From: Dictyostelium discoideum
Lineage: Eukaryota
Assembly (NCBI GenBank): GCA_000004695.1
Contig: CM000153.2
Span: forward strand, 3,008,001 to 3,072,000
Direction: 5' to 3'
Length of the DNA: 64,000 bases
In this document: positions 6,489 through 49,162 of the stretch, in pieces
How the letters are laid out: each line of letters begins with the position of its first letter
Numbering within the stretch: the stretch's first letter is position 1
The notes under the pieces: model-generated
What the model was told of the DNA's origin: nothing
The model's database searches: none
The model's input: the letters and a program-made list of their open reading frames with translations, nothing else
Made by a program: the position numbers and the translations under genes

Positions 6489-7638
6489 ATTTTTTAATTT
6501 ATTATTATTAAAATTATAGATTTTAGGGTTACCAGATTTTTTAGATTCATTATTTTCATATTTAGTCAAACATTTTACATTAAATAATTATTATGAATTT
6601 GGTTTAATATTTATTATACCAATAATCATTTTAATTTTATTATTAGGTAAAACCAGTATTACTTGTAATAAATTTGATAAAATCTGTTTTGATAGTAATA
6701 GCTTTTTTGATGGAAAGCAAATTCAATATCAACAATATCAACAACATCATCACCACCATCAACAACAACAACAACATCATAATAATCAAATTCAAAATAA
6801 TGAAATACCATTACCAAGATCAATTCAAATAAAAAGTAATCCAATAATTTCAACAATTAAATTAATGAAAAAAAAAGAATTTATTCATATGGTACCAGTT
6901 ATATTATTATATGGGTTTATTGGGAATTGGTTAAATTATGAACTTTTTGATGAAATTATTTTAGGGTATAAAGCATCTACACAATTCATTATAATCTCAC
7001 ATTTAATTAGTAGTTGTTTATGTTTTACAATTTTTGGATACTTTAGTTATAAATTTAAAAGAACTTTAATTATAATTTCAGTTTTATTGGTTGGTATAAT
7101 CGGTTCAGTTATAAATGTTTTAGTCATTTATTATGAAATTGAGCTATTAGAAAAAAATACATCTTTATATTTCTCAAGTTTATTATTCATTCAAATGATA
7201 TACTATTTAATTGGAATTCAAATTTATAGTCATATATCACACTTGTTTGAAGATAAATTCAATTCATTATATTCTTCATCATCGGCATCAGCAACAGCAG
7301 CAGCAGGGGCAGAAATATCATCAGCAATAATATTCTCATCAAATTATTCATTTTTATCATCAGAATTATCAATACCAATACCAGAATTATTTTCATATTA
7401 TTCACCATTATCAATTTCAGCTGCAATTAAATTCACTCAAATATTTGGTAGTTCAATTCTTTACTTTGTTTATAATTGGTCCACTTTTTTCATTAGATTT
7501 ATTGTTTTCATTGTGTTATTAATTATTGGAACTTTAAGTTTCATTCATTCAATTAAACATTTATCAAAGAAAAGTAATCAATTTAAACAATTTTTAATTT
7601 TAAATTCAAATGATGATGAAGAATATAATGGTTTTTAA
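5770..7638 (+). CDS. Predicted polytopic membrane protein of unknown function. Three exons (5770-5904, 5987-6433, 6520-7638), about 567 aa, with a Q/H-rich loop.
   Basis: The three ORF-track segments join in frame. Exon 1 ends at AAG|GTAAAT (5904/5905). Exon 2 runs from aattag|AAT at 5987 to ATT|GTATGT at 6433, which is 447 nt (149 codons). Exon 3 starts after tatag| at 6520 and is in frame with ORF 6865-7638. It has many hydrophobic helices and a QQYQQHHHHHQQQQQHH loop. I found no recognisable conserved domain. Confidence 0.45.
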
Positions 7639-7671: not shown

Positions 7672-8490
7672 AAAAAAGATTTAAATTATTTTTGTTAAAT
7701 AGTTTTATTTTATTATTTTTTTATTGTTTTTTATTTTTTTTTTAAAAACATTACTACTTATAATAACATCTTATTATAATAACTTATTAAATCTGTTTGG
7801 GTGGCGAATCATGTTTTTATCTTGATCATAAGGGCATCAGTTCTAACATTGGGGAATGATTTGTTTTCTACTTGAGTTTGGGATAACAAAATGAATGTAT
7901 ACCTAAATTTCCATAATCATTGTTAAAGAAATCTTGTGAATTTGGTACTGCATTCAATAGAGATCACCTGAACCAATAAACGTTTGACATTTGTTATTTA
8001 AGAAAGTATAATAACATTTGGTAATGGTTTTACAATATAGGGGCATGGGGATCCAATGACAGATCTCCAAAAAAGAAAAAGCCCAAGTAAATTGACCGCG
8101 CTGGTAACTTTGTCACCCCTCACTGGCAGCTGGACATTATCACTATTCCTTACTATCAACCTATCTCCACATTACTTTCTATTGGCAGTGAATGGGAGAT
8201 ACAGGAGGACAGGATAGCCACTGGTATAGTTAATCTTACTTAGGAGGCTTCATTTGGAATAAGTATTACCATTTGCGTTTGTTACTTGACTCATTAGTTT
8301 AATGACATTAACAATTTTGTTAAAAAAATATAATTAAAAAATGAAAAAATTCTAAAACCAATAGACTAAGGTAGATAAACAAAAAAAAAAAGATTTTAAA
8401 TAATTTAAATAATTTTATTTGTATGTTTTTTTTATATTTTTTTTTTATTTCATTTTTAAACATTACTACTAATAATAACATTATCAATAA
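7672..8490. repeat. A roughly 610-bp GC-richer non-coding segment (7776-8387) bracketed by about 100-bp imperfect direct repeats (7672-7775 and 8388-8490). It is a candidate transposon or solo-LTR-like remnant.
   Basis: Left copy: aaaaaaaaaaagatttaaattatttttgttaaatag...ttttttttttaaaaacattactacttataataacat. Right copy: aaaaaaaaaaagattttaaataatttaaataatttt...tttcatttttaaacattactactaataataacat. The interior is about 40% GC, has no ORF longer than 60 aa and no internal repeats. The composition is foreign to the surrounding sequence, which is 80-85% AT. Confidence 0.4.
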
Positions 8491-8788
8491 ATCTATGAAA
8501 TATATTTGAATAGAATATTTCAATGGTTATATTATCATTTCCAGGGAAATATTTTTCATCTCTATAAACTAAATAAAATCTAAGAGGTATTTTATTATTA
8601 TATAACTCATCATTAAATATTTTTATTTCTTTTTCTATTTTTTTATACTATTTTGTTTGTTTTTTGTTTTTTAAAATAAAATAAAATTTTAAAGATATAA
8701 ATTAATATCTTATTTTAAATCTAATAATAAAATAAAAAAAAACCACTCTTTTTTTTTTTATTTTTTTATTTTTTTTTTTTAAATGTGT

Positions 8789-9454
8789 TTAAAAACTTAC
8801 TATTCTCATTCTTCTTGAATCAGATAGAAATAAGAAAAATAAAATTGCGCAAAAACCAACCCATATAATACAAAAAATCACAAATGATCCTAATGGGTAG
8901 ACATATGATAAACCAAAAGTAACACCAGGAGATGTAATTAATATAATTAGTACTATTATTAATACTATATTATGAGTGGTTGGATCGTGTAATCTATTTA
9001 AACTTTTAATAAATCTATTGTAATCTCCTTGTGAAATTAAATTCGATATTTCTCTTGGAACTCTACTACGATTTTTTTGAAAATATTCTCTAACACTACC
9101 ATGAACTTTTAATTCCACCCTTTTATATTGTTCTTTATATAAATTATATATACTAATTTTATTTACATCTATTATTGGCTCAATATTATTATTTAAATTA
9201 TTATTATTATTATTATAATTAATTGAATTATTATTTATTGAACTATCTAAACTTTTATTCATTAAATCATTATTTGGCTTTAAAATTGTATCATGACTTT
9301 TACTAATACTATTATTTAAATCGTTACTTATAATACTATTATTTATATCGTTATTTGAATTTTCATTATGATTTATATTATTATTTATATTATTATTATT
9401 AATTCCTATATCACTTAATTTTTTTTCATCAATCATGGTGATTTCTTTTATCAA
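8789..9454 (-). CDS. Small Asn-rich two-TM protein, paralog 1 of a local three-gene family.
   Basis: It has a long N-rich N-terminus. The conserved juxtamembrane block RVPREISNLISQGDYNRFIKSLNRLHDP is followed by two hydrophobic helices. It shares this architecture with the ORFs at 10468-10983 and 11759-12199. Confidence 0.5.
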   Translation of the reverse strand: MIKEITMIDEKKLSDIGINNNNINNNINHNENSNNDINNSIISNDLNNSISKSHDTILKPNNDLMNKSLDSSINNNSINYNNNNNNLNNNIEPIIDVNKISIYNLYKEQYKRVELKVHGSVREYFQKNRSRVPREISNLISQGDYNRFIKSLNRLHDPTTHNIVLIIVLIILITSPGVTFGLSYVYPLGSFVIFCIIWVGFCAILFFLFLSDSRRMRIVSF

Positions 9455-10467
9455 GAAAAAAAAAAAAAAAGGTTTTCCTTTTTTTTTTTTTTTTTTTTTA
9501 TAATTTATAAATATTATTATTTATTATTATTTTGTTATAAATATTTATAATTAATAAAAAATAAATTTTAAAAATAAATTTTAAAAATAAAAAAAAATAA
9601 ATTAAAAAGAATATGAAACACAATTATATTTTTTAATTATTTTTATTTTTTTTATTTTTTTTTATATAACAATTATAAATTTATATTGAGAGTCTTTTTA
9701 AATAATAATTAATTTAAATATTGTGAGTGTAATTTAAATTATTGCACAATAAAAAAAAAATTATAATTATTTTCAAATTGTAAAATATCAAAAAATACTT
9801 TTTTAATTTTTTCACACACAAACACTATCTCTCATTTTGTCTTTGTTTTTTTTTTTTTGTACTTGGTGGTAGTGAAATTTAAAAAAACAAATAAAAATAA
9901 ATAAAAAATAAATAAAAAAAAAAAAAAAAAAAAAAATTAAAAATTACAAAAAATAATTGTATTATATCTTGTTGGCCACGCCCACATAAATTATATATAT
10001 ATATAATATATATTATAATTTATATATATATATAATTATTTTGCGATTTATATTGTTTTTCAATATTATACAACCACGTGACCTGTAAAATCCAACATAT
10101 CATTTCTTATATATATATTTTATAAAAAAAAAATGAAACATAGGTTTATTTTTATATTTATAATTTTTTATTTGTGGTGATAGTAATTTATCATAGATAG
10201 AGATATATATCATACAAAAATGTTTATTTTATTTTTTATACTTTTATTTATTTTTTGTTTTTATTCATTTATAAAAGTAACTTCAATTGAAATTTTATCA
10301 AAACCAGGTACAACATGATTCTCTTTATAAATTAATCTGAATAAAATAGGTATTTTTTTATTTATTAAAAAGGAATTATAATTTAAAATAATTTCTTCAA
10401 TTTTATAATTCTTTTTTTTATATAATACAAAATATGTTAATATTACTATATTTATAAATAAAATAAA

Positions 10468-10983
10468 TTATTTAAAATTTATACAAACAATTCTTTTTTC
10501 AATTAATCCATTGGTTAAAATAAATATTGCAATATAAAATAATAAAGTTAAACAAATTCCAAATGCAAGTCTAGGTGAAAATGTGAATACTATAAAGAAT
10601 AACGGAATAATCAATATCATTGATAATATCATTAAAATTAACATTATTTGATAATAAATAGGTAATCTTTTATTATTTATTTTAACAATAAATTGTTTAT
10701 ATAATTCTTCCTCAACAATTAAATGTTGGATTTCATTTGGTATTTCATTTGAAAAATAATTTTTATATGTCCCATTTGGTTGGATTTCAAATGTTAATAT
10801 ATTATTTTCATTTATACTTTCATTAAAACTACTTTTTAAACACTTTTTAATAGAACTATTACTATTATTATTATTATTATTATTAATATTATTTTTATTA
10901 AAAACTATAGTATTTTTTATTTCAATTTCACAAATTTGGTCTTTAATATTTAAATTTTGGTTTTCTGTGATTAAGTTATTCAT
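10468..10983 (-). CDS. Small Asn-rich two-TM protein, paralog 2.
   Basis: The block IPNEIQHLIVEEELYKQFIVKINNKRLP is followed by two TM helices. It is on the same strand as its neighbours and in the same order. Confidence 0.45.
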   Translation of the reverse strand: MNNLITENQNLNIKDQICEIEIKNTIVFNKNNINNNNNNNSNSSIKKCLKSSFNESINENNILTFEIQPNGTYKNYFSNEIPNEIQHLIVEEELYKQFIVKINNKRLPIYYQIMLILMILSMILIIPLFFIVFTFSPRLAFGICLTLLFYIAIFILTNGLIEKRIVCINFK

Positions 10984-11559
10984 TTATTATTTTAATTATT
11001 ATTAGAAATAGAATTTTTTTATTTTTTTATTTTTTTTTATTTTTTTTTTTTAAAAATAATAAAATATAATAAATGGATTTAAAATAATTTTAAATATTAT
11101 TGGTTTGAATGTCATATATATTTACATTCACCATTTATTTGTTCAATTAATATTTTAAATAAAAAAACAAATAAATAAAAAAAAAAAAAACACTAAAAAT
11201 TTTAACCCCTAAATCCATGTATCATTTAAAAATAAATGTTATCATTTTTTAATGTTACCATTTTAATTTTATTGTTAATTTATGATTGGATATTTTAATT
11301 TCCAATTGTTCATATTTTATATTCATAATCATAATAAATTCTATATACCGGTTGTACTCTTTAAATTCAAAAAAGTTTGTTAAATATTGAATGATTACAT
11401 TCTAACTCCTCTTATTTACTATTATGGTCTATCTTTTATATTTATAATTATAAAAATATTTTTTAATCTCATTTTTTATAAATTAAATAAAATATAGCAA
11501 TAAACTGCGGTTGAAAAATCAAAAATAAAACCAATGATATTGAAATTTAGAAATGTAAT

Positions 11560-11659
11560 NNNNNNNNNNNNNNNNNNNNNNNNNNNNNNNNNNNNNNNNN
11601 NNNNNNNNNNNNNNNNNNNNNNNNNNNNNNNNNNNNNNNNNNNNNNNNNNNNNNNNNNN
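11560..11659. other. Assembly gap of 100 N, which is an unknown-size scaffold gap.
   Basis: A run of exactly 100 N characters. Confidence 0.99.
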
Positions 11660-11758
11660 TCCAATTCAATTTGGTCATCCTTTTTTATATTTTAATATAT
11701 TTTATGTTTTTAGTATTTTTACTTTTAAATTTTATTATTATTATTATTTTTATTAATA

Positions 11759-12199
11759 TTATTTAATAAAATTATCAAAACAAACATTTTTATTTCTATA
11801 TCCTGAAAAAATTAAAAAACATGTAATAAATACTGGGATGGCTCCAAATGGTATAATATAATATAGAGAATGATTTTTAAAAACTAAAAAAAAAACCAAT
11901 GGGAAAATTAAAATTGTTGTTATGAATATTAAAATTATTAAAATAAAAATATATTTTGGATGAATTAGTTTATTTATTTTTTTAATAAATTCATAGTATC
12001 TATTAGGATTTATTAAATTTGAAATTTCTTTTGGAACATTTTTATTAAAATTATTAAAAAGCTTCGTTGAGCTTTTAAGTATTATAATTTCTTCTTCATC
12101 ATTTATTTTATTTTCGCTAATATAATTATTATTATTAATATTTGTAGTTTTATTATTATTATTATTATTATTATTAATATTATTTTTATCAACAGACAT
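11759..12199 (-). CDS. Small Asn-rich two-TM protein, paralog 3.
   Basis: The block NVPKEISNLINPNRYYEFIKKINKLIHP is followed by two TM helices. It is the member most similar to paralog 1 in the conserved motif. Confidence 0.5.
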   Translation of the reverse strand: MSVDKNNINNNNNNNNKTTNINNNNYISENKINDEEEIIILKSSTKLFNNFNKNVPKEISNLINPNRYYEFIKKINKLIHPKYIFILIILIFITTILIFPLVFFLVFKNHSLYYIIPFGAIPVFITCFLIFSGYRNKNVCFDNFIK

Positions 12200-12294: not shown

Positions 12295-12688
12295 TAAAAT
12301 TTATGGGGGTAGAAAAAAATTTTGAAAAAAACCAATTAAAAATGGATCCTTAAACAATAATTTTTTTTTTTTTTTTAAATTCAAAAAATTTTTTAATTTT
12401 CTTTTAATTTTGGAATAAGTTAAAAAAATTTTTTTTTTTTTAGTTTTATTTACTAATTTATTTATTAAAAAAAAAATAAAAATAATAATAATAATAATAA
12501 AATTTTTTGGGTTTTTTTATTTAAAAATTCAATAAAATTTTTAATTTTAATTTTTTTTTTTCAACCTCCCCACCATAAAAAAAGATTATTTTAATTTTTA
12601 TTAAGGAGCACCGGCTGGGAATTTTTTTTTTTTTTTTTTTTTGAGTCATTAAAAAAAGTGTATTTTCATTTTTTTTTTTTTTTTTTTT

Positions 12689-12780
12689 AAATGCTTTGTC
12701 ATTTGTTTTTTAAATGCTTTGTCATTTGTTTTTTAAATGCTTTGTCATTTGTTTTTTAAATGCTTTGTCATTTGTTTTTT
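12689..12780. repeat. Perfect 4 x 23-bp tandem repeat (aaatgctttgtcatttgtttttt) in a divergent promoter region.
   Basis: There are four exact head-to-tail copies at 12689, 12712, 12735 and 12758. They sit about 90 bp upstream of the ATG at 12871 and about 490 bp upstream of the minus-strand ATG at 12199. An A50 tract lies at 12240-12290. Confidence 0.9.
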
Positions 12781-12870
12781 ATAGTTTAGATAAAAAAAAA
12801 AAAATGTATAAATTATAATTTTTATACCAAAATTATTAATTGAAAAATTAAAAATAAATAAATAAATAAA

Positions 12871-14010
12871 ATGAAATTAGTTAATATTTTTATAATGCTT
12901 GTTATTTTTTTAATAACATTTTCTGTATATAATAAAATTTATCCAAATAATAGTAATACTAGTAGTAGTAGTAGTAGTAGCAGTAGTAAATATGAAGATT
13001 TTCAAATAAATAAAGAAATAAAAAACCAAGATTATTGTAGAATTGAGTCAATGGATTTTTCAAAATTAAATGAAGAATTAATAATAGAGAATAGAGGTAT
13101 TGCTGATATTATTGTTGGTGATAAAGATATAGAAAACATTAATTATATTGGTTTAGATTCATTTAAATGTTCATTAGGATTCAATGGAATTTATTTGACA
13201 CCATCAAATATTTGGAATGTCATAATTTTAGGTTTAAATAAATTGGTTAACCCAATGAAATACTCTTCATTAATTAATGAAAAGGATCAAACTTTAATAT
13301 TACAAAATTCAATTTTTAAAAATAATAATAATAATAATAATGATCAAATTGAAAAGATTTTAATTGAAGAAATATCAAAAAAAATAAATCCAACTTTCAA
13401 ACAACTCTTAATACCAAAATTTGAATCATCAACATTAAAAGATGGATTAATATTTTTAACAAATGCAATTGGAAAGAGGAATGGTGTATATGATTATGGT
13501 ATGATAGATTGTAAGGTTCCTTCATGTTATGTTAATGAAAGTTTGCCAAAGGATATTCAAATTTTGGGTAATATAGAAGATTATGAAAAAATGTTGATTA
13601 ATATTAAATCGATTTATGATCTTTTATATGAAGATTTTAATTTGGATGATACATCATTCAAACTTTTTGAATGGTATGGAAAGAATACATTCATTATAGA
13701 ATCTATTATCAAATATATGCGTGATAAGTCATTTAAAAATATGGATTTATATTATTTTATTAATAAATTCCATTCATCAAATTCACTAAATGGTTTTTTA
13801 AATGATGCAAGAGGTTTTTCATATATTCCAATTGAAATTGTGAATGGAACTGATTTAGTGTATCCAACAGGAACAAAAATAAATTTATTTGCTGGTCATT
13901 TTGCTTCAAATATCTTATTACCAAAATCTATTCATGGTGGTTTAGCAATCGTGGAACCTACAATCAATTGGGTCATTACAAAATATCGAATGTTCAGTTC
14001 AATAATTTAA
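12871..14010 (+). CDS. Secreted protein of unknown function, 379 aa, single exon.
   Basis: It has an N-terminal signal peptide (MKLVNIFIMLVIFLITFSVYN), a poly-Ser tract and several Cys residues. I recognised no conserved domain. Confidence 0.45.
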   Translation: MKLVNIFIMLVIFLITFSVYNKIYPNNSNTSSSSSSSSSKYEDFQINKEIKNQDYCRIESMDFSKLNEELIIENRGIADIIVGDKDIENINYIGLDSFKCSLGFNGIYLTPSNIWNVIILGLNKLVNPMKYSSLINEKDQTLILQNSIFKNNNNNNNDQIEKILIEEISKKINPTFKQLLIPKFESSTLKDGLIFLTNAIGKRNGVYDYGMIDCKVPSCYVNESLPKDIQILGNIEDYEKMLINIKSIYDLLYEDFNLDDTSFKLFEWYGKNTFIIESIIKYMRDKSFKNMDLYYFINKFHSSNSLNGFLNDARGFSYIPIEIVNGTDLVYPTGTKINLFAGHFASNILLPKSIHGGLAIVEPTINWVITKYRMFSSII

Positions 14011-21252: not shown

Positions 21253-21324
21253 CTCCCTGTCCGGGAATTGAACCCGGGCCTTTCGCGTGACAGGCGAAAA
21301 TCCTCACCACTAGACCAACAAGGA
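21253..21324 (-). tRNA. tRNA-Asp (anticodon GUC), with an external B box about 40 bp downstream.
   Basis: The minus-strand sequence is TCCTTGTTGGTCTAGTGGTGAGGATTTTCGCCTGTCACGCGAAAGGCCCGGGTTCAATTCCCGGACAGGGAG. It has an A box (TGGTCTAGTGG), a B box (GGTTCAATTCC), an anticodon loop CTGTCAC and a 7-bp acceptor stem with G-U pairs. About 35-45 nt downstream, on the tRNA strand (plus-strand coordinates 21211-21229), lies ACAGGTTCGATTCTTGT, a B-box-like element (ex-B). Confidence 0.9.
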
Positions 21325-45970: not shown

Positions 45971-46847
45971 ATGGATATTTCAAAAATTGGAAATAATACA
46001 TATGCATTATATCGTAAATATAAGGTAATGCTTCCAAGTGGAATAAATTGGTTTGCACCATTTCCAGGATACGACAACGATTTACCAAAAGAAGTTGAAG
46101 CTATAGTTTCAATAACACCATTTGATTACTCAAATATAATTGATAATGTTAATTTAATTATCAAAACAAATGACATAAAGAAAAGAAAAGTTATTCTTTA
46201 TTTAATAATTTCATTAGTTATTGGTTGTTTAGTACCAATTTTAAAATATGCACCATGGTATATTTTAATGATCACTTGTATCATTGTATATTCTTCAATA
46301 TTTATTTTAATTACAAAATTAATATTATCAATTAATAATGTAAGTTATTTATTCTTTTTTTTTAGAAAAAAAAAAAACAAAAAAAGTGATAAATTAATTG
46401 ATTTTCTTTTTCCAAAAAAAAAAAAAAAAAAAAAAAAAAAAGATGAAAAATGAAGTGGATCAAAAGATTAAAGAATTTAATTCAAAATATTTTGAAACAC
46501 TTGGAATAAAGTTTACGTTTAAAACTAAAAAAAATACAACAAGACATTATCCATATAAATTGAGATTATTATACCCACTCTCTCAACAACAATTAGAATT
46601 AATTAGACAATTCCAAAATATTGATAAACAATATAAAGCAGATGCATTGGACCAAATAATTAATGTTAAACCACATAAATTACAACAAAAAAATCAACCA
46701 CAAAAACAACAACAACCATCATCATCACCATCTTCAAAACAAAATGAAAATCATCAACAACAACAAATAATTGATATCGGATTTGATAATGATTTTGGAG
46801 ATTATGATGATAATTATGATGATAATTCATCACTTTTACAAAAATAA
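45971..46847 (+). CDS. Predicted two-TM membrane protein with a Q-rich acidic C-terminal exon. Two exons: 45971-about 46339 and about 46441-46847.
   Basis: Exon 1 (...PKEVEAIVSITPFDYSNIIDNVNLIIKTNDIKKRKVILYLIISLVIGCLVPIL...YILMITCIIVYSSIFILI) ends at AATAAT|GTAAGT. Exon 2 begins after a poly-A tract at aaaag|ATGAAAAATGAAGTG. The juxtamembrane pattern resembles the 8789-12199 family. Confidence 0.4.
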
Positions 46848-47335: not shown

Positions 47336-48667
47336 ATGGTATTAATTACAAGATATTTACCATCAGTAACAGATAATAATCAACCAGCATTAGAAGGTCA
47401 AAGTAAAGATCAAATTGTTGATACAGTTATTACAAGTACTACAGTTGGTATTATTAATCAATTAACAATGTTAGTTGCACATTCCAATAGTATTTTCACA
47501 GCTTTAGCTAATGATGCAAATTTGGTAACACAAAGAATTGAGAAATTAGGATCTAGAATTAGACCACTCATTCAATCAATACCATCGATTGAAGATTATC
47601 ATAGAAATACATCAATCGATACAATGAATAGTAAACCAAGAGCAGAGTTTCATGCTGATAACAGTGAAAGAAATCAACATTTTACTCATGCCTCAATACC
47701 GGCATCAATCAATACTGTCTATGAAAAATGTAAACCACCACCAAATCTTCAATTATTGGACCCATACATGGACGATGGTCAAAAATCATTAAAACTCTAC
47801 ACCAATCCAGACTTTTTCATGGATGAATGGGTTGCTGAACAACAAAAACTTCATGAAGAGGCCAGACAAAGAAAACGTGAGCGTAGAGAAGCACGTTTAA
47901 AGAAAAAAGGTGAAAAGAATGAAGTAGAGGTTAAAAAAGTTAAATCCGTTACAAAGGTACGTTATGATCCTGTAACTGGTGAGAAAATTACTATCAATAT
48001 TGAAAGTCCACACACTTCATCACCACAAATTCAACATCAATCCAACAACACCGCCACTCCACAACATACCACCCAACACTTTGGTACCAATCAATACCAA
48101 GCACCACCACCACCACCATTATCTCAATCTTCACCATCTCAACAACATTCACCAATCAATTCCTATACTCCACCTCCACCACCATTAAATACAAGCACCC
48201 CTTCACCATCCTCTTCATTCCAAGGTAGACCACCTTCAACTGGTTTCAATACTCCACCACCACCAATGTCAAATAATAATAATATGCCACCACCACCACC
48301 AATGCAACAAAATGGTGGAGCTGCAAACAATCGTTTATCAGTCCATAACTCGGCTCCAATTGTTGCTGCTCCAGCTCCACCACCACCACCACCACCACCT
48401 TCAGCACCTGCCCCACCACCACCTCCAATGGCTAAAGCTGGTGGAGGTGCCTCTGACATTAAACCAAAAGCATCCGGTGCTCGTTCAGATCTTCTCTCTT
48501 CAATTATGCAAGGTATGGCATTAAAACCAGCTGAAGAACGTAAGGTTGCTGAAGCTCCAAAGAAAGAAGAAGCATTGAATGTAGCTGATATTCTCGCTAG
48601 ACGTATTGCTTGGGCTGGTGATAGTGATTCCTCTGAAGATGAATCTGATGATTCTGATTGGGATTAA
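47336..48667 (+). CDS. scrA: SCAR/WAVE, the Arp2/3 activator. 443 aa, single exon.
   Basis: The N-terminal SCAR-homology domain reads ...SKDQIVDTVITSTTVGIINQLTMLVAHSNSIFTALANDANLVTQRIEKLGSRI. A basic region and a long poly-proline region follow (PPPPPLSQSSP...PPPPPPPPSAPAPPPPP). The WH2 motif is RSDLLSSIMQGMALKPAEERK. The C-terminal acidic/connector region is ADILARRIAWAGDSDSSEDESDDSDWD*. The size and domain order match Dictyostelium SCAR. Confidence 0.9.
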   Translation: MVLITRYLPSVTDNNQPALEGQSKDQIVDTVITSTTVGIINQLTMLVAHSNSIFTALANDANLVTQRIEKLGSRIRPLIQSIPSIEDYHRNTSIDTMNSKPRAEFHADNSERNQHFTHASIPASINTVYEKCKPPPNLQLLDPYMDDGQKSLKLYTNPDFFMDEWVAEQQKLHEEARQRKRERREARLKKKGEKNEVEVKKVKSVTKVRYDPVTGEKITINIESPHTSSPQIQHQSNNTATPQHTTQHFGTNQYQAPPPPPLSQSSPSQQHSPINSYTPPPPPLNTSTPSPSSSFQGRPPSTGFNTPPPPMSNNNNMPPPPPMQQNGGAANNRLSVHNSAPIVAAPAPPPPPPPPSAPAPPPPPMAKAGGGASDIKPKASGARSDLLSSIMQGMALKPAEERKVAEAPKKEEALNVADILARRIAWAGDSDSSEDESDDSDWD

Positions 48668-49090
48668 AAAATATATTTTTGGTACCAAAAACTATCACTC
48701 TTGCGAAATTTAAGTTATAAAAAGAAAAAAAAAATAATAAAAAAATTTAAGTTAATAAAAAAAAATATAATAAGAATAATGCATAATCATTTTAATTTAC
48801 GTGTCCTGTTTTGATGGATTTTTTTTTTTTTTTGAGTTAAAGGTATTACTTTATTTATTTATTCAATTTTTATAATTATTAAATTATTAATTATAAAATT
48901 TGTTTAAAAATAAATGTATAAAATAATAAATAATTTTAATAATGGAAAAGTATTTATAATAAATTGGGTGTTTGCAATAATTATTTGAACTTTTTAGTAT
49001 TGTATGTTGTCTGTTGTTGTTTGTTTGTTTGTTTTTTGAAACTCAAGGTTATAACATCCGAAGTTCGGATTTTTATGAAAAATCCAAAAG

Positions 49091-49162
49091 CTCCCTGTCC
49101 GGGAATTGAACCCGGGCCTTTCGCGTGACAGGCGAAAATCCTCACCACTAGACCAACAAGGA
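49091..49162 (-). tRNA. tRNA-Asp (anticodon GUC), a second copy identical to the one at 21253-21324.
   Basis: It is 72/72 nt identical to the first copy and shares 18 nt of identical 5' flank (ggatatttgatatttttt). Downstream on the plus strand lies GAAGTTCGGATTTTT (49061-49075), a B-box-like element. Confidence 0.9.

Follow-up and report, generated by a model that had tools for sequence, protein, structure and literature searches.

A tandem trio of Dictyostelium discoideum genes encoding probable divergent Erf4/GOLGA7 proteins with a predicted membrane hairpin

The window analysed here, a stretch of 64,000 nucleotides (contig CM000153.2, positions 3,008,001 to 3,072,000 of the forward strand), belongs to chromosome 4 of Dictyostelium discoideum AX4, a strongly AT-rich genome (22% GC), and carries a cluster of three minus-strand genes, referred to as g1, g2 and g3, as well as a more distant relative, g4, that begins at 45971 on the plus strand. 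Two annotated genes place the sequence: the open reading frame (ORF) 8789-9436 is DDB_G0285249, and SCAR (DDB_G0285253) is found at 47336-48667. The products of g1 to g4 are read here as divergent members of the Erf4/GOLGA7 superfamily that carry a membrane hairpin and are probably accessory subunits of DHHC protein S-acyltransferases, a reading to which a probability of about 0.6 is attached.

A preliminary description of the window, made from the sequence alone, had recognised the trio as three ORFs, 8789-9454, 10468-10983 and 11759-12199. On re-reading, all three are present on the minus strand at those coordinates, and each encodes an Asn-rich N-terminus, a shared block ([VI]P.EI..LI...[FY]..FI..[IL]N) and two hydrophobic segments, but they are only the first exons of the genes. 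Longer proteins came up in a profile search, in Dictyostelium assemblies that were annotated recently, and splicing of the window sequence gave exact matches to them. The gene models, together with the assembly gap, are as follows:

8456-9436, minus strand: g1 (DDB_G0285249), exon 1 at 8801-9436, intron at 8648-8800, exon 2 at 8456-8647 including the stop codon; 275 amino acids.
10261-10983, minus strand: g2, exon 1 at 10489-10983, phase-0 intron at 10411-10488 (78 nucleotides), exon 2 at 10261-10410 including the stop codon; 214 amino acids.
11560-11659, no strand: assembly gap of 100 N, equivalent to 276 bp (9149-9424 of locus L001) in GCA_054883475.1.
11660-12199, minus strand: g3 (DDB_G0285301), exon 1 at 11786-12199, phase-0 intron at 11680-11785 (106 nucleotides), first 20 nucleotides of exon 2 at 11660-11679.
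45971-46847, plus strand: g4 (DDB_G0285281; Q54NF9, 'Transmembrane protein'), exon 1 at 45971-46339, phase-0 intron at 46340-46442, exon 2 at 46443-46847; 257 amino acids.

The g1 intron is 153 nucleotides long, in phase 0 and of the GT..AG type (GTAAGT..AG); translation starts from the ATG at 9436 and not from the TTG at 9454, and splicing gives a product identical to KAM9942562.1 (P0002). In AX4 the model for g1, at 215 amino acids, ends within the intron and is without the conserved second exon, which newer assemblies include in a product of 275 amino acids. For g2 no AX4 protein model turned up in the searches made, and newer assemblies annotate the product of 214 amino acids; the length of its Asn-rich tail varies by strain, giving 214 or 242 amino acids. 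All three introns of the trio are in phase 0 and lie a few residues past the second hydrophobic helix, and each second exon encodes a conserved tail, ~50 residues long, made up of one helix and two strands. Since this tail follows the helices, the two helices are central in the protein and not C-terminal, as they had been described; the second exon adds a helix and two beta-strands behind them.

The gap had been placed between the second and third genes, with the suggestion that further copies could be collapsed or missing there. The gapless assembly GCA_054883475.1 (CM142510.1, locus L001) aligns with the window by blastn on both flanks, at 100% identity for 3560 bp and at 95.8% for 1343 bp. 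Its corresponding 276 bp complete g3 exon 2 with the last ~51 codons (…ETKNLNEELKINGIPIKFNIIYSKNPNKFVREIEIIYKKTNSSESYKISLEA) and the stop codon and continue into the 3' flank. It is therefore exon 2 of g3 that the gap cuts off, and the AX4 record labels DDB_G0285301 'partial' because this exon enters the run of N after 20 nucleotides; the full protein, KAM9942560.1 in the gapless assembly, has 196 amino acids. Exactly three genes are present in L001 and again in L002, the locus of a second, more divergent D. discoideum strain, and the proposal of hidden copies is refuted.

The trio is a genuine tandem family of real two-exon genes, as proposed, and both pairwise comparison and gene structure confirm it. 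Composition-adjusted BLASTP relates g1 to g3 at E 3e-7, g1 to g2 at E 8e-5 and g2 to g3 at E 8e-4, with 27-34% identity among the three within the one array. Smith-Waterman scores of the full domains lie at z = 7.4-13.6 over shuffles in which soluble and membrane segments were kept apart, and 0 of 500 shuffles reached the observed score. A phase-0 intron follows helix 2 in all four genes, in the same alignment column in g1 to g3 and within one residue of it in g4. Furthermore, Nei-Gojobori ratios of nonsynonymous to synonymous substitution (dN/dS) between L001 and L002 are 0.27 for g1, 0.14 for g2 and 0.26 for g3, which is purifying selection on each gene of the trio.

The family is present beyond this locus, in syntenic homologs of D. 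purpureum and in further D. discoideum paralogs, e.g. DDB_G0290155. The two D. purpureum homologs, DICPUDRAFT_156432 and DICPUDRAFT_82455, share an RCC1-repeat gene, an aromatic lyase and a fucose pyrophosphorylase as neighbours with the trio, and both have a phase-0 intron at the equivalent position past helix 2. On their scaffold, GL871238.1 (L003 3800-4708 and 8001-8715), they are separated by the fucose-pyrophosphorylase gene and do not stand side by side; the scaffold ends ~200 bp past the second homolog, and further copies are possible there. A second dictyostelid clade comprises ACTFIZ_011525 and ACTFIZ_011527 of D. cf. discoideum and DDB_G0290155 and ACTFIT_001381 of D. discoideum, has a conserved N-terminal extension of ~120-190 residues (MESNII.WLNN...) and is also locally clustered, judging by locus-tag numbers. 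ACTFIZ_005049 represents another paralog type.

The preliminary description found the shared block unassignable, but it is the core motif of Erf4/GOLGA7 (Pfam PF10256, 'Golgin subfamily A member 7/ERF4', gathering threshold 29.3 bits). Word-indexed protein searches returned close Dictyostelium relatives only, and an exhaustive HMMER search was needed for the remote ones. A profile made from the Dictyostelium cluster only (A4), run against 1.84 billion representatives, matched 16 proteins at E <= 1e-3 and yielded the link to PF10256. The matches include the D. purpureum pair, the dictyostelid paralogs DDB_G0290155, P0025, P0029, P0033 and P0034, a protein of the rotifer Adineta steineri and three environmental proteins. 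P0026 was matched at E 2.4e-6 with A4 and scores 41.8 bits on PF10256, above the cut-off; P0030, P0031 and P0032 score ~26 bits, with 22-23 bits in the D. purpureum homologs and 17.3-19.8 bits in the g2/g3 orthologs, and a precomputed PF10256 assignment is present on P0031, P0032 and P0039. Erf4 also recurs below threshold for g3 and for the g2/g3 orthologs, at E 8e-4 to 5e-3.

Searches of PDB sequences led to the same family. With a profile of the cluster plus g4, human GOLGA7 (8hf3_B) was the top match at E 0.076, in two collinear parts that correspond to the motif block and the post-hairpin helix. A widened profile (A6), searched against 177,635 PDB sequences, again gave human GOLGA7 as the best match, at E 3.9e-5 with the runner-up at E 0.1, and hhalign of A6 against GOLGA7, the query sequence of which was checked against the PDB chain, gave P 6.9e-5. 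Conservation of the motif F..[FY]P.EL...I....[FY]..I..[IL]N and of the N in the post-hairpin helix extends to human GOLGA7, in which P31, N51 and N101 are the only residues invariant across the aligned set.

The spliced protein of g4 exactly equals the annotated product. Its pairwise similarity to g1 to g3 is marginal (z 1.7-2.9) and the narrow profile, compared with the g4 family by hhalign, gives P 0.002, while against the widened family g4 is aligned by hhalign with 91.7% probability at E 7.9e-7 over 108 columns, from the motif through the hairpin and the next helix to the first C-terminal strand. The suggestion that the gene at 45971 is a distant fourth member thus holds up, also in its phase-0 intron past helix 2, and sequence comparison supports g4 as a distant paralog of the same architecture outside the tandem array.

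With a 17-row alignment and no templates, AlphaFold2 modelled residues 56-214 of g2 with a predicted local distance difference test score (pLDDT) of 88.6 and a predicted template modelling score (pTM) of 0.77. The model consists of a strand (7-12), three helices (37-51, 54-80 and 82-127) and two further strands (132-143 and 148-157). With six Dictyostelium-cluster sequences alone the pLDDT was 55.5, and the Foldseek search of the PDB with that model was meaningless. Because the AlphaFold2 weights predate the 2023 release of 8HF3, the predicted fold is independent of the sequence evidence. The whole cytosolic domain of the model superposes on GCP16 in its complex with ZDHHC9, and the predicted succession is strand, cytosolic helix, two membrane helices, cytosolic helix and two strands, with the strands in a three-stranded antiparallel sheet. 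The published structures of GCP16 and Erf4 combine an antiparallel sheet of three strands with a cytoplasmic pair and a membrane-inserted pair of helices, and the order of elements in the model is the published one (10.1101/2022.12.12.520165). By homology and fold, g1 to g3, and more distantly g4, are very probably highly divergent members of the Erf4/GOLGA7 (GCP16) superfamily.

Each of the four proteins has two hydrophobic segments of 20-27 residues with KD19 maxima of 2.6-3.2, and the hairpin is long enough to cross a bilayer, which it is predicted to do. Both hydrophobic helices have Lys and Arg at their outer ends, and strand 1 lies in one sheet with the two C-terminal strands; both termini are therefore expected to be cytosolic. 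In the proposed architecture a disposable Asn-rich N-terminal tail would be followed by a beta-strand, a loop with the F..[VIFY]P.E[IL] motif and a short helix ending in [IL]N, then by the hairpin of two hydrophobic helices, 20-27 residues each, and finally by a helix continuous with hairpin helix 2 and two beta-strands paired with the initial one. The regions on the N- and C-terminal sides of the hairpin would together make up one small domain, anchored to the membrane by the hairpin. The array probably arose by local duplication before the split of D. discoideum and D. purpureum, and it is one of several dictyostelid clusters of this kind.

The closest known system is human GOLGA7/GCP16 (and GOLGA7B), the accessory subunit of ZDHHC9 and ZDHHC5 (PDB 8HF3, 9OA6). 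Identity to GOLGA7 is 16%, and the window proteins, which score under the Pfam threshold, differ from it in their long Asn-rich N-terminal tail, in their tandem multigene array and in the helix pair, which has ~50 residues and spanning length where GOLGA7 has ~23 re-entrant residues with S-acylated cysteines. Yeast Erf4 (PDB 8HFC), which partners Erf2, a Ras palmitoyltransferase, also belongs to PF10256 and has the same core as the window proteins, i.e. a sheet of three strands with one pair of helices in the cytosol and another inserted into the membrane, although it carries its own extra N-terminal segment and two extra strands and has no transmembrane helix; it was not detected directly in the sequence or structure searches made. 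Long hydrophobic hairpins are found elsewhere among PF10256 proteins, namely in A. steineri A0A816BRG0 (P0032) and in P0026, P0030, P0031 and P0039. These five resemble the window proteins in having the motif, two long hydrophobic helices, a helix and strands, match the Dictyostelium-only profile at E 2e-6 to 9e-4 and score at or near the Pfam Erf4 threshold, but they are nearer to the Pfam consensus and have no Asn-rich tails. In P0026 the domain is duplicated in tandem.

The analogy with yeast Erf4-Erf2 and human GOLGA7-ZDHHC9/5 points to accessory subunits of DHHC protein S-acyltransferases as the most likely role, which is put forward tentatively and at somewhat less than even odds. The hairpin would pack on the transmembrane helices of the DHHC enzyme, and stabilising the enzyme, or its zinc-finger domain, would fall to the cytosolic domain of sheet and helices. 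The topology with both termini cytosolic, the DHHC binding and the function are what we infer from the comparison.

Several results weigh against this reading. None of g1 to g4 reaches the PF10256 cut-off of 29.3 bits: the g3 ORF scores 18.5 and g4 14.7 (E 0.032), and g1 and g2 have no Erf4 match in the Pfam scan. The alignment of the Dictyostelium-only profile with GOLGA7 by hhalign is weak (P 0.004), and Foldseek gave no significant match in the PDB with either AlphaFold2 model. The membrane segments also differ from those of the known proteins, as Erf4 and GCP16 lack a transmembrane helix (10.1101/2022.12.12.520165) and the GOLGA7 maximum is 1.41, with no KD19 window >= 1.6, whereas g1 to g4 carry two segments of spanning length and thus depart from the peripheral or re-entrant membrane association typical of Erf4/GOLGA7. 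The RDYS motif, which is needed for binding of GOLGA7 and GOLGA7B to ZDHHC5 and touches the zinc fingers of ZDHHC9 (PMC12528901), is absent after strand 1 in all four proteins: read directly, the loops at this position are HGSVREYF (g1), PNGTYKNYF (g2), SSTKLFNNF (g3) and LPSGINWF (g4), with no R-D-Y, and the D. purpureum homolog P0023 retains just 'RD'. Finally, there is no DHHC gene in the window (no ORF containing D[HQ]HC), and a literature search found no expression, localisation or interaction data for the cluster genes, no mention of DDB_G0285249, DDB_G0285301, DDB_G0290155 or PF10256, and nothing useful on Dictyostelium DHHC enzymes.

With RDYS lost and a self-sufficient anchor gained, there is real room for a diverged partner interface or for another role. 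The proteins could have the Erf4/GOLGA7 fold by descent and yet have been re-purposed as small integral membrane proteins that are no longer DHHC partners, for example as scaffolds or adaptors particular to certain organelles, within an expansion that is specific to the lineage and evolves fast. The replacement of re-entrant S-acylated helices by a transmembrane hairpin, the loss of RDYS, the fast divergence of paralogs within one tandem array (27-34% identity) and the several additional dictyostelid paralogs, some with unrelated N-terminal extensions (P0025, P0028, P0029, P0033), would all fit such a history. However, the motif and the post-hairpin N are conserved to human GOLGA7 with three invariant residues, the cytosolic domain superposes wholly on GCP16 bound to ZDHHC9, and yeast Erf4 itself binds Erf2 with interface details unlike those of the human pair (10.1101/2022.12.12.520165). 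Re-purposing is accordingly regarded as possible, if rather unlikely.

A different family has a far smaller claim. PF20990, the C-terminal membrane domain of bacterial DUF2207, is the lowest-E Pfam match of g2 (4.1e-5, 23.8 bits) and also matches g1 and g3 across the motif-plus-hairpin region, from which the trio could be taken as eukaryotic relatives of that domain and not of Erf4. Its scores for g1 to g3, at 13-24 bits, are nevertheless all under the gathering threshold of 33 bits and come mostly from the hydrophobic helices, which score easily. Moreover, PF20990 gains nothing in the distant relatives (15.7 bits in P0031, 14.2 in P0032) whereas their Erf4 scores climb to 26-42 bits, and PDB sequence and structure searches alike single out GOLGA7, which leaves kinship with PF20990 highly improbable. 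DUF2207_C, DUF3671 and the other sub-threshold Pfam matches were judged to be hydrophobic or compositional. Least probable of all is that the block is N/I/K-rich low complexity joined to generic hydrophobic stretches, with no true family or no real genes behind it, for which the extreme AT-richness of the genome, the poly-Asn N-termini of strain-variable length (214 against 242 amino acids in g2) and the sub-threshold matches to unrelated membrane DUFs such as DUF2207_C might speak, but which is refuted by the results above, the shuffles having shown that the block is not merely compositional.

Several features surround the cluster. At 8040-8300 of the window there is an island of ~260 bp with 42% GC in the 22%-GC intergenic stretch that separates the upstream gene, which ends at 7638, from the 3' end of g1. 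The window contains a single copy of it, L001 has an identical one, and in the second strain its right part alone is conserved (76% identity). The island has no Rfam or tRNA match; it is possibly a non-coding RNA or the relic of a mobile element. On the other side of the trio, at 12680-12790, about four direct copies of a 23-nucleotide unit (aaatgctttgtcatttgtttttt) lie between two divergent genes, g3, which starts at 12199 on the minus strand, and DDB_G0285255, which encodes a DUF4419 protein and starts at 12871 on the plus strand; the copies could form a promoter element common to both genes. Neither a tRNA nor an Rfam RNA was found in or adjoining the cluster. Two tRNA-Asp(GTC) genes, both on the minus strand at 21253-21324 and 49090-49162, are unrelated to it.

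The analysis corrects three reference gene models, i.e. g1, which was without its second exon, g2, apparently unannotated in AX4, and g3, truncated by the gap. As a contribution to the Erf4/GOLGA7 family the result is incremental, a useful annotation of divergent members of a known family and not a new kind of system. A bolder proposal, considered doubtful at present, is that dictyostelids and scattered other eukaryotes (e.g. bdelloid rotifers) share an undescribed, transmembrane-anchored branch of Erf4/GOLGA7, in which re-entrant helices dependent on S-acylation would have turned into a true transmembrane hairpin, the enzyme-contacting RDYS would have been replaced and at least six D. discoideum paralogs would serve as interchangeable accessory subunits. 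If so, pairing of the paralogs with different DHHC enzymes would make these enzymes more diverse in stability, location or choice of substrate.

To our knowledge, the protein palmitoylation machinery of D. discoideum is almost unstudied, and the reading of g1 to g4 as divergent Erf4/GOLGA7 proteins gives four 'hypothetical' genes of this organism, with their paralogs, a role as S-acyltransferase accessory subunits as a working hypothesis. Furthermore, if this variant binds a DHHC enzyme without the RDYS contact, the interface between Erf4/GOLGA7 and DHHC enzymes would be plastic beyond what the structures from yeast and human suggest.

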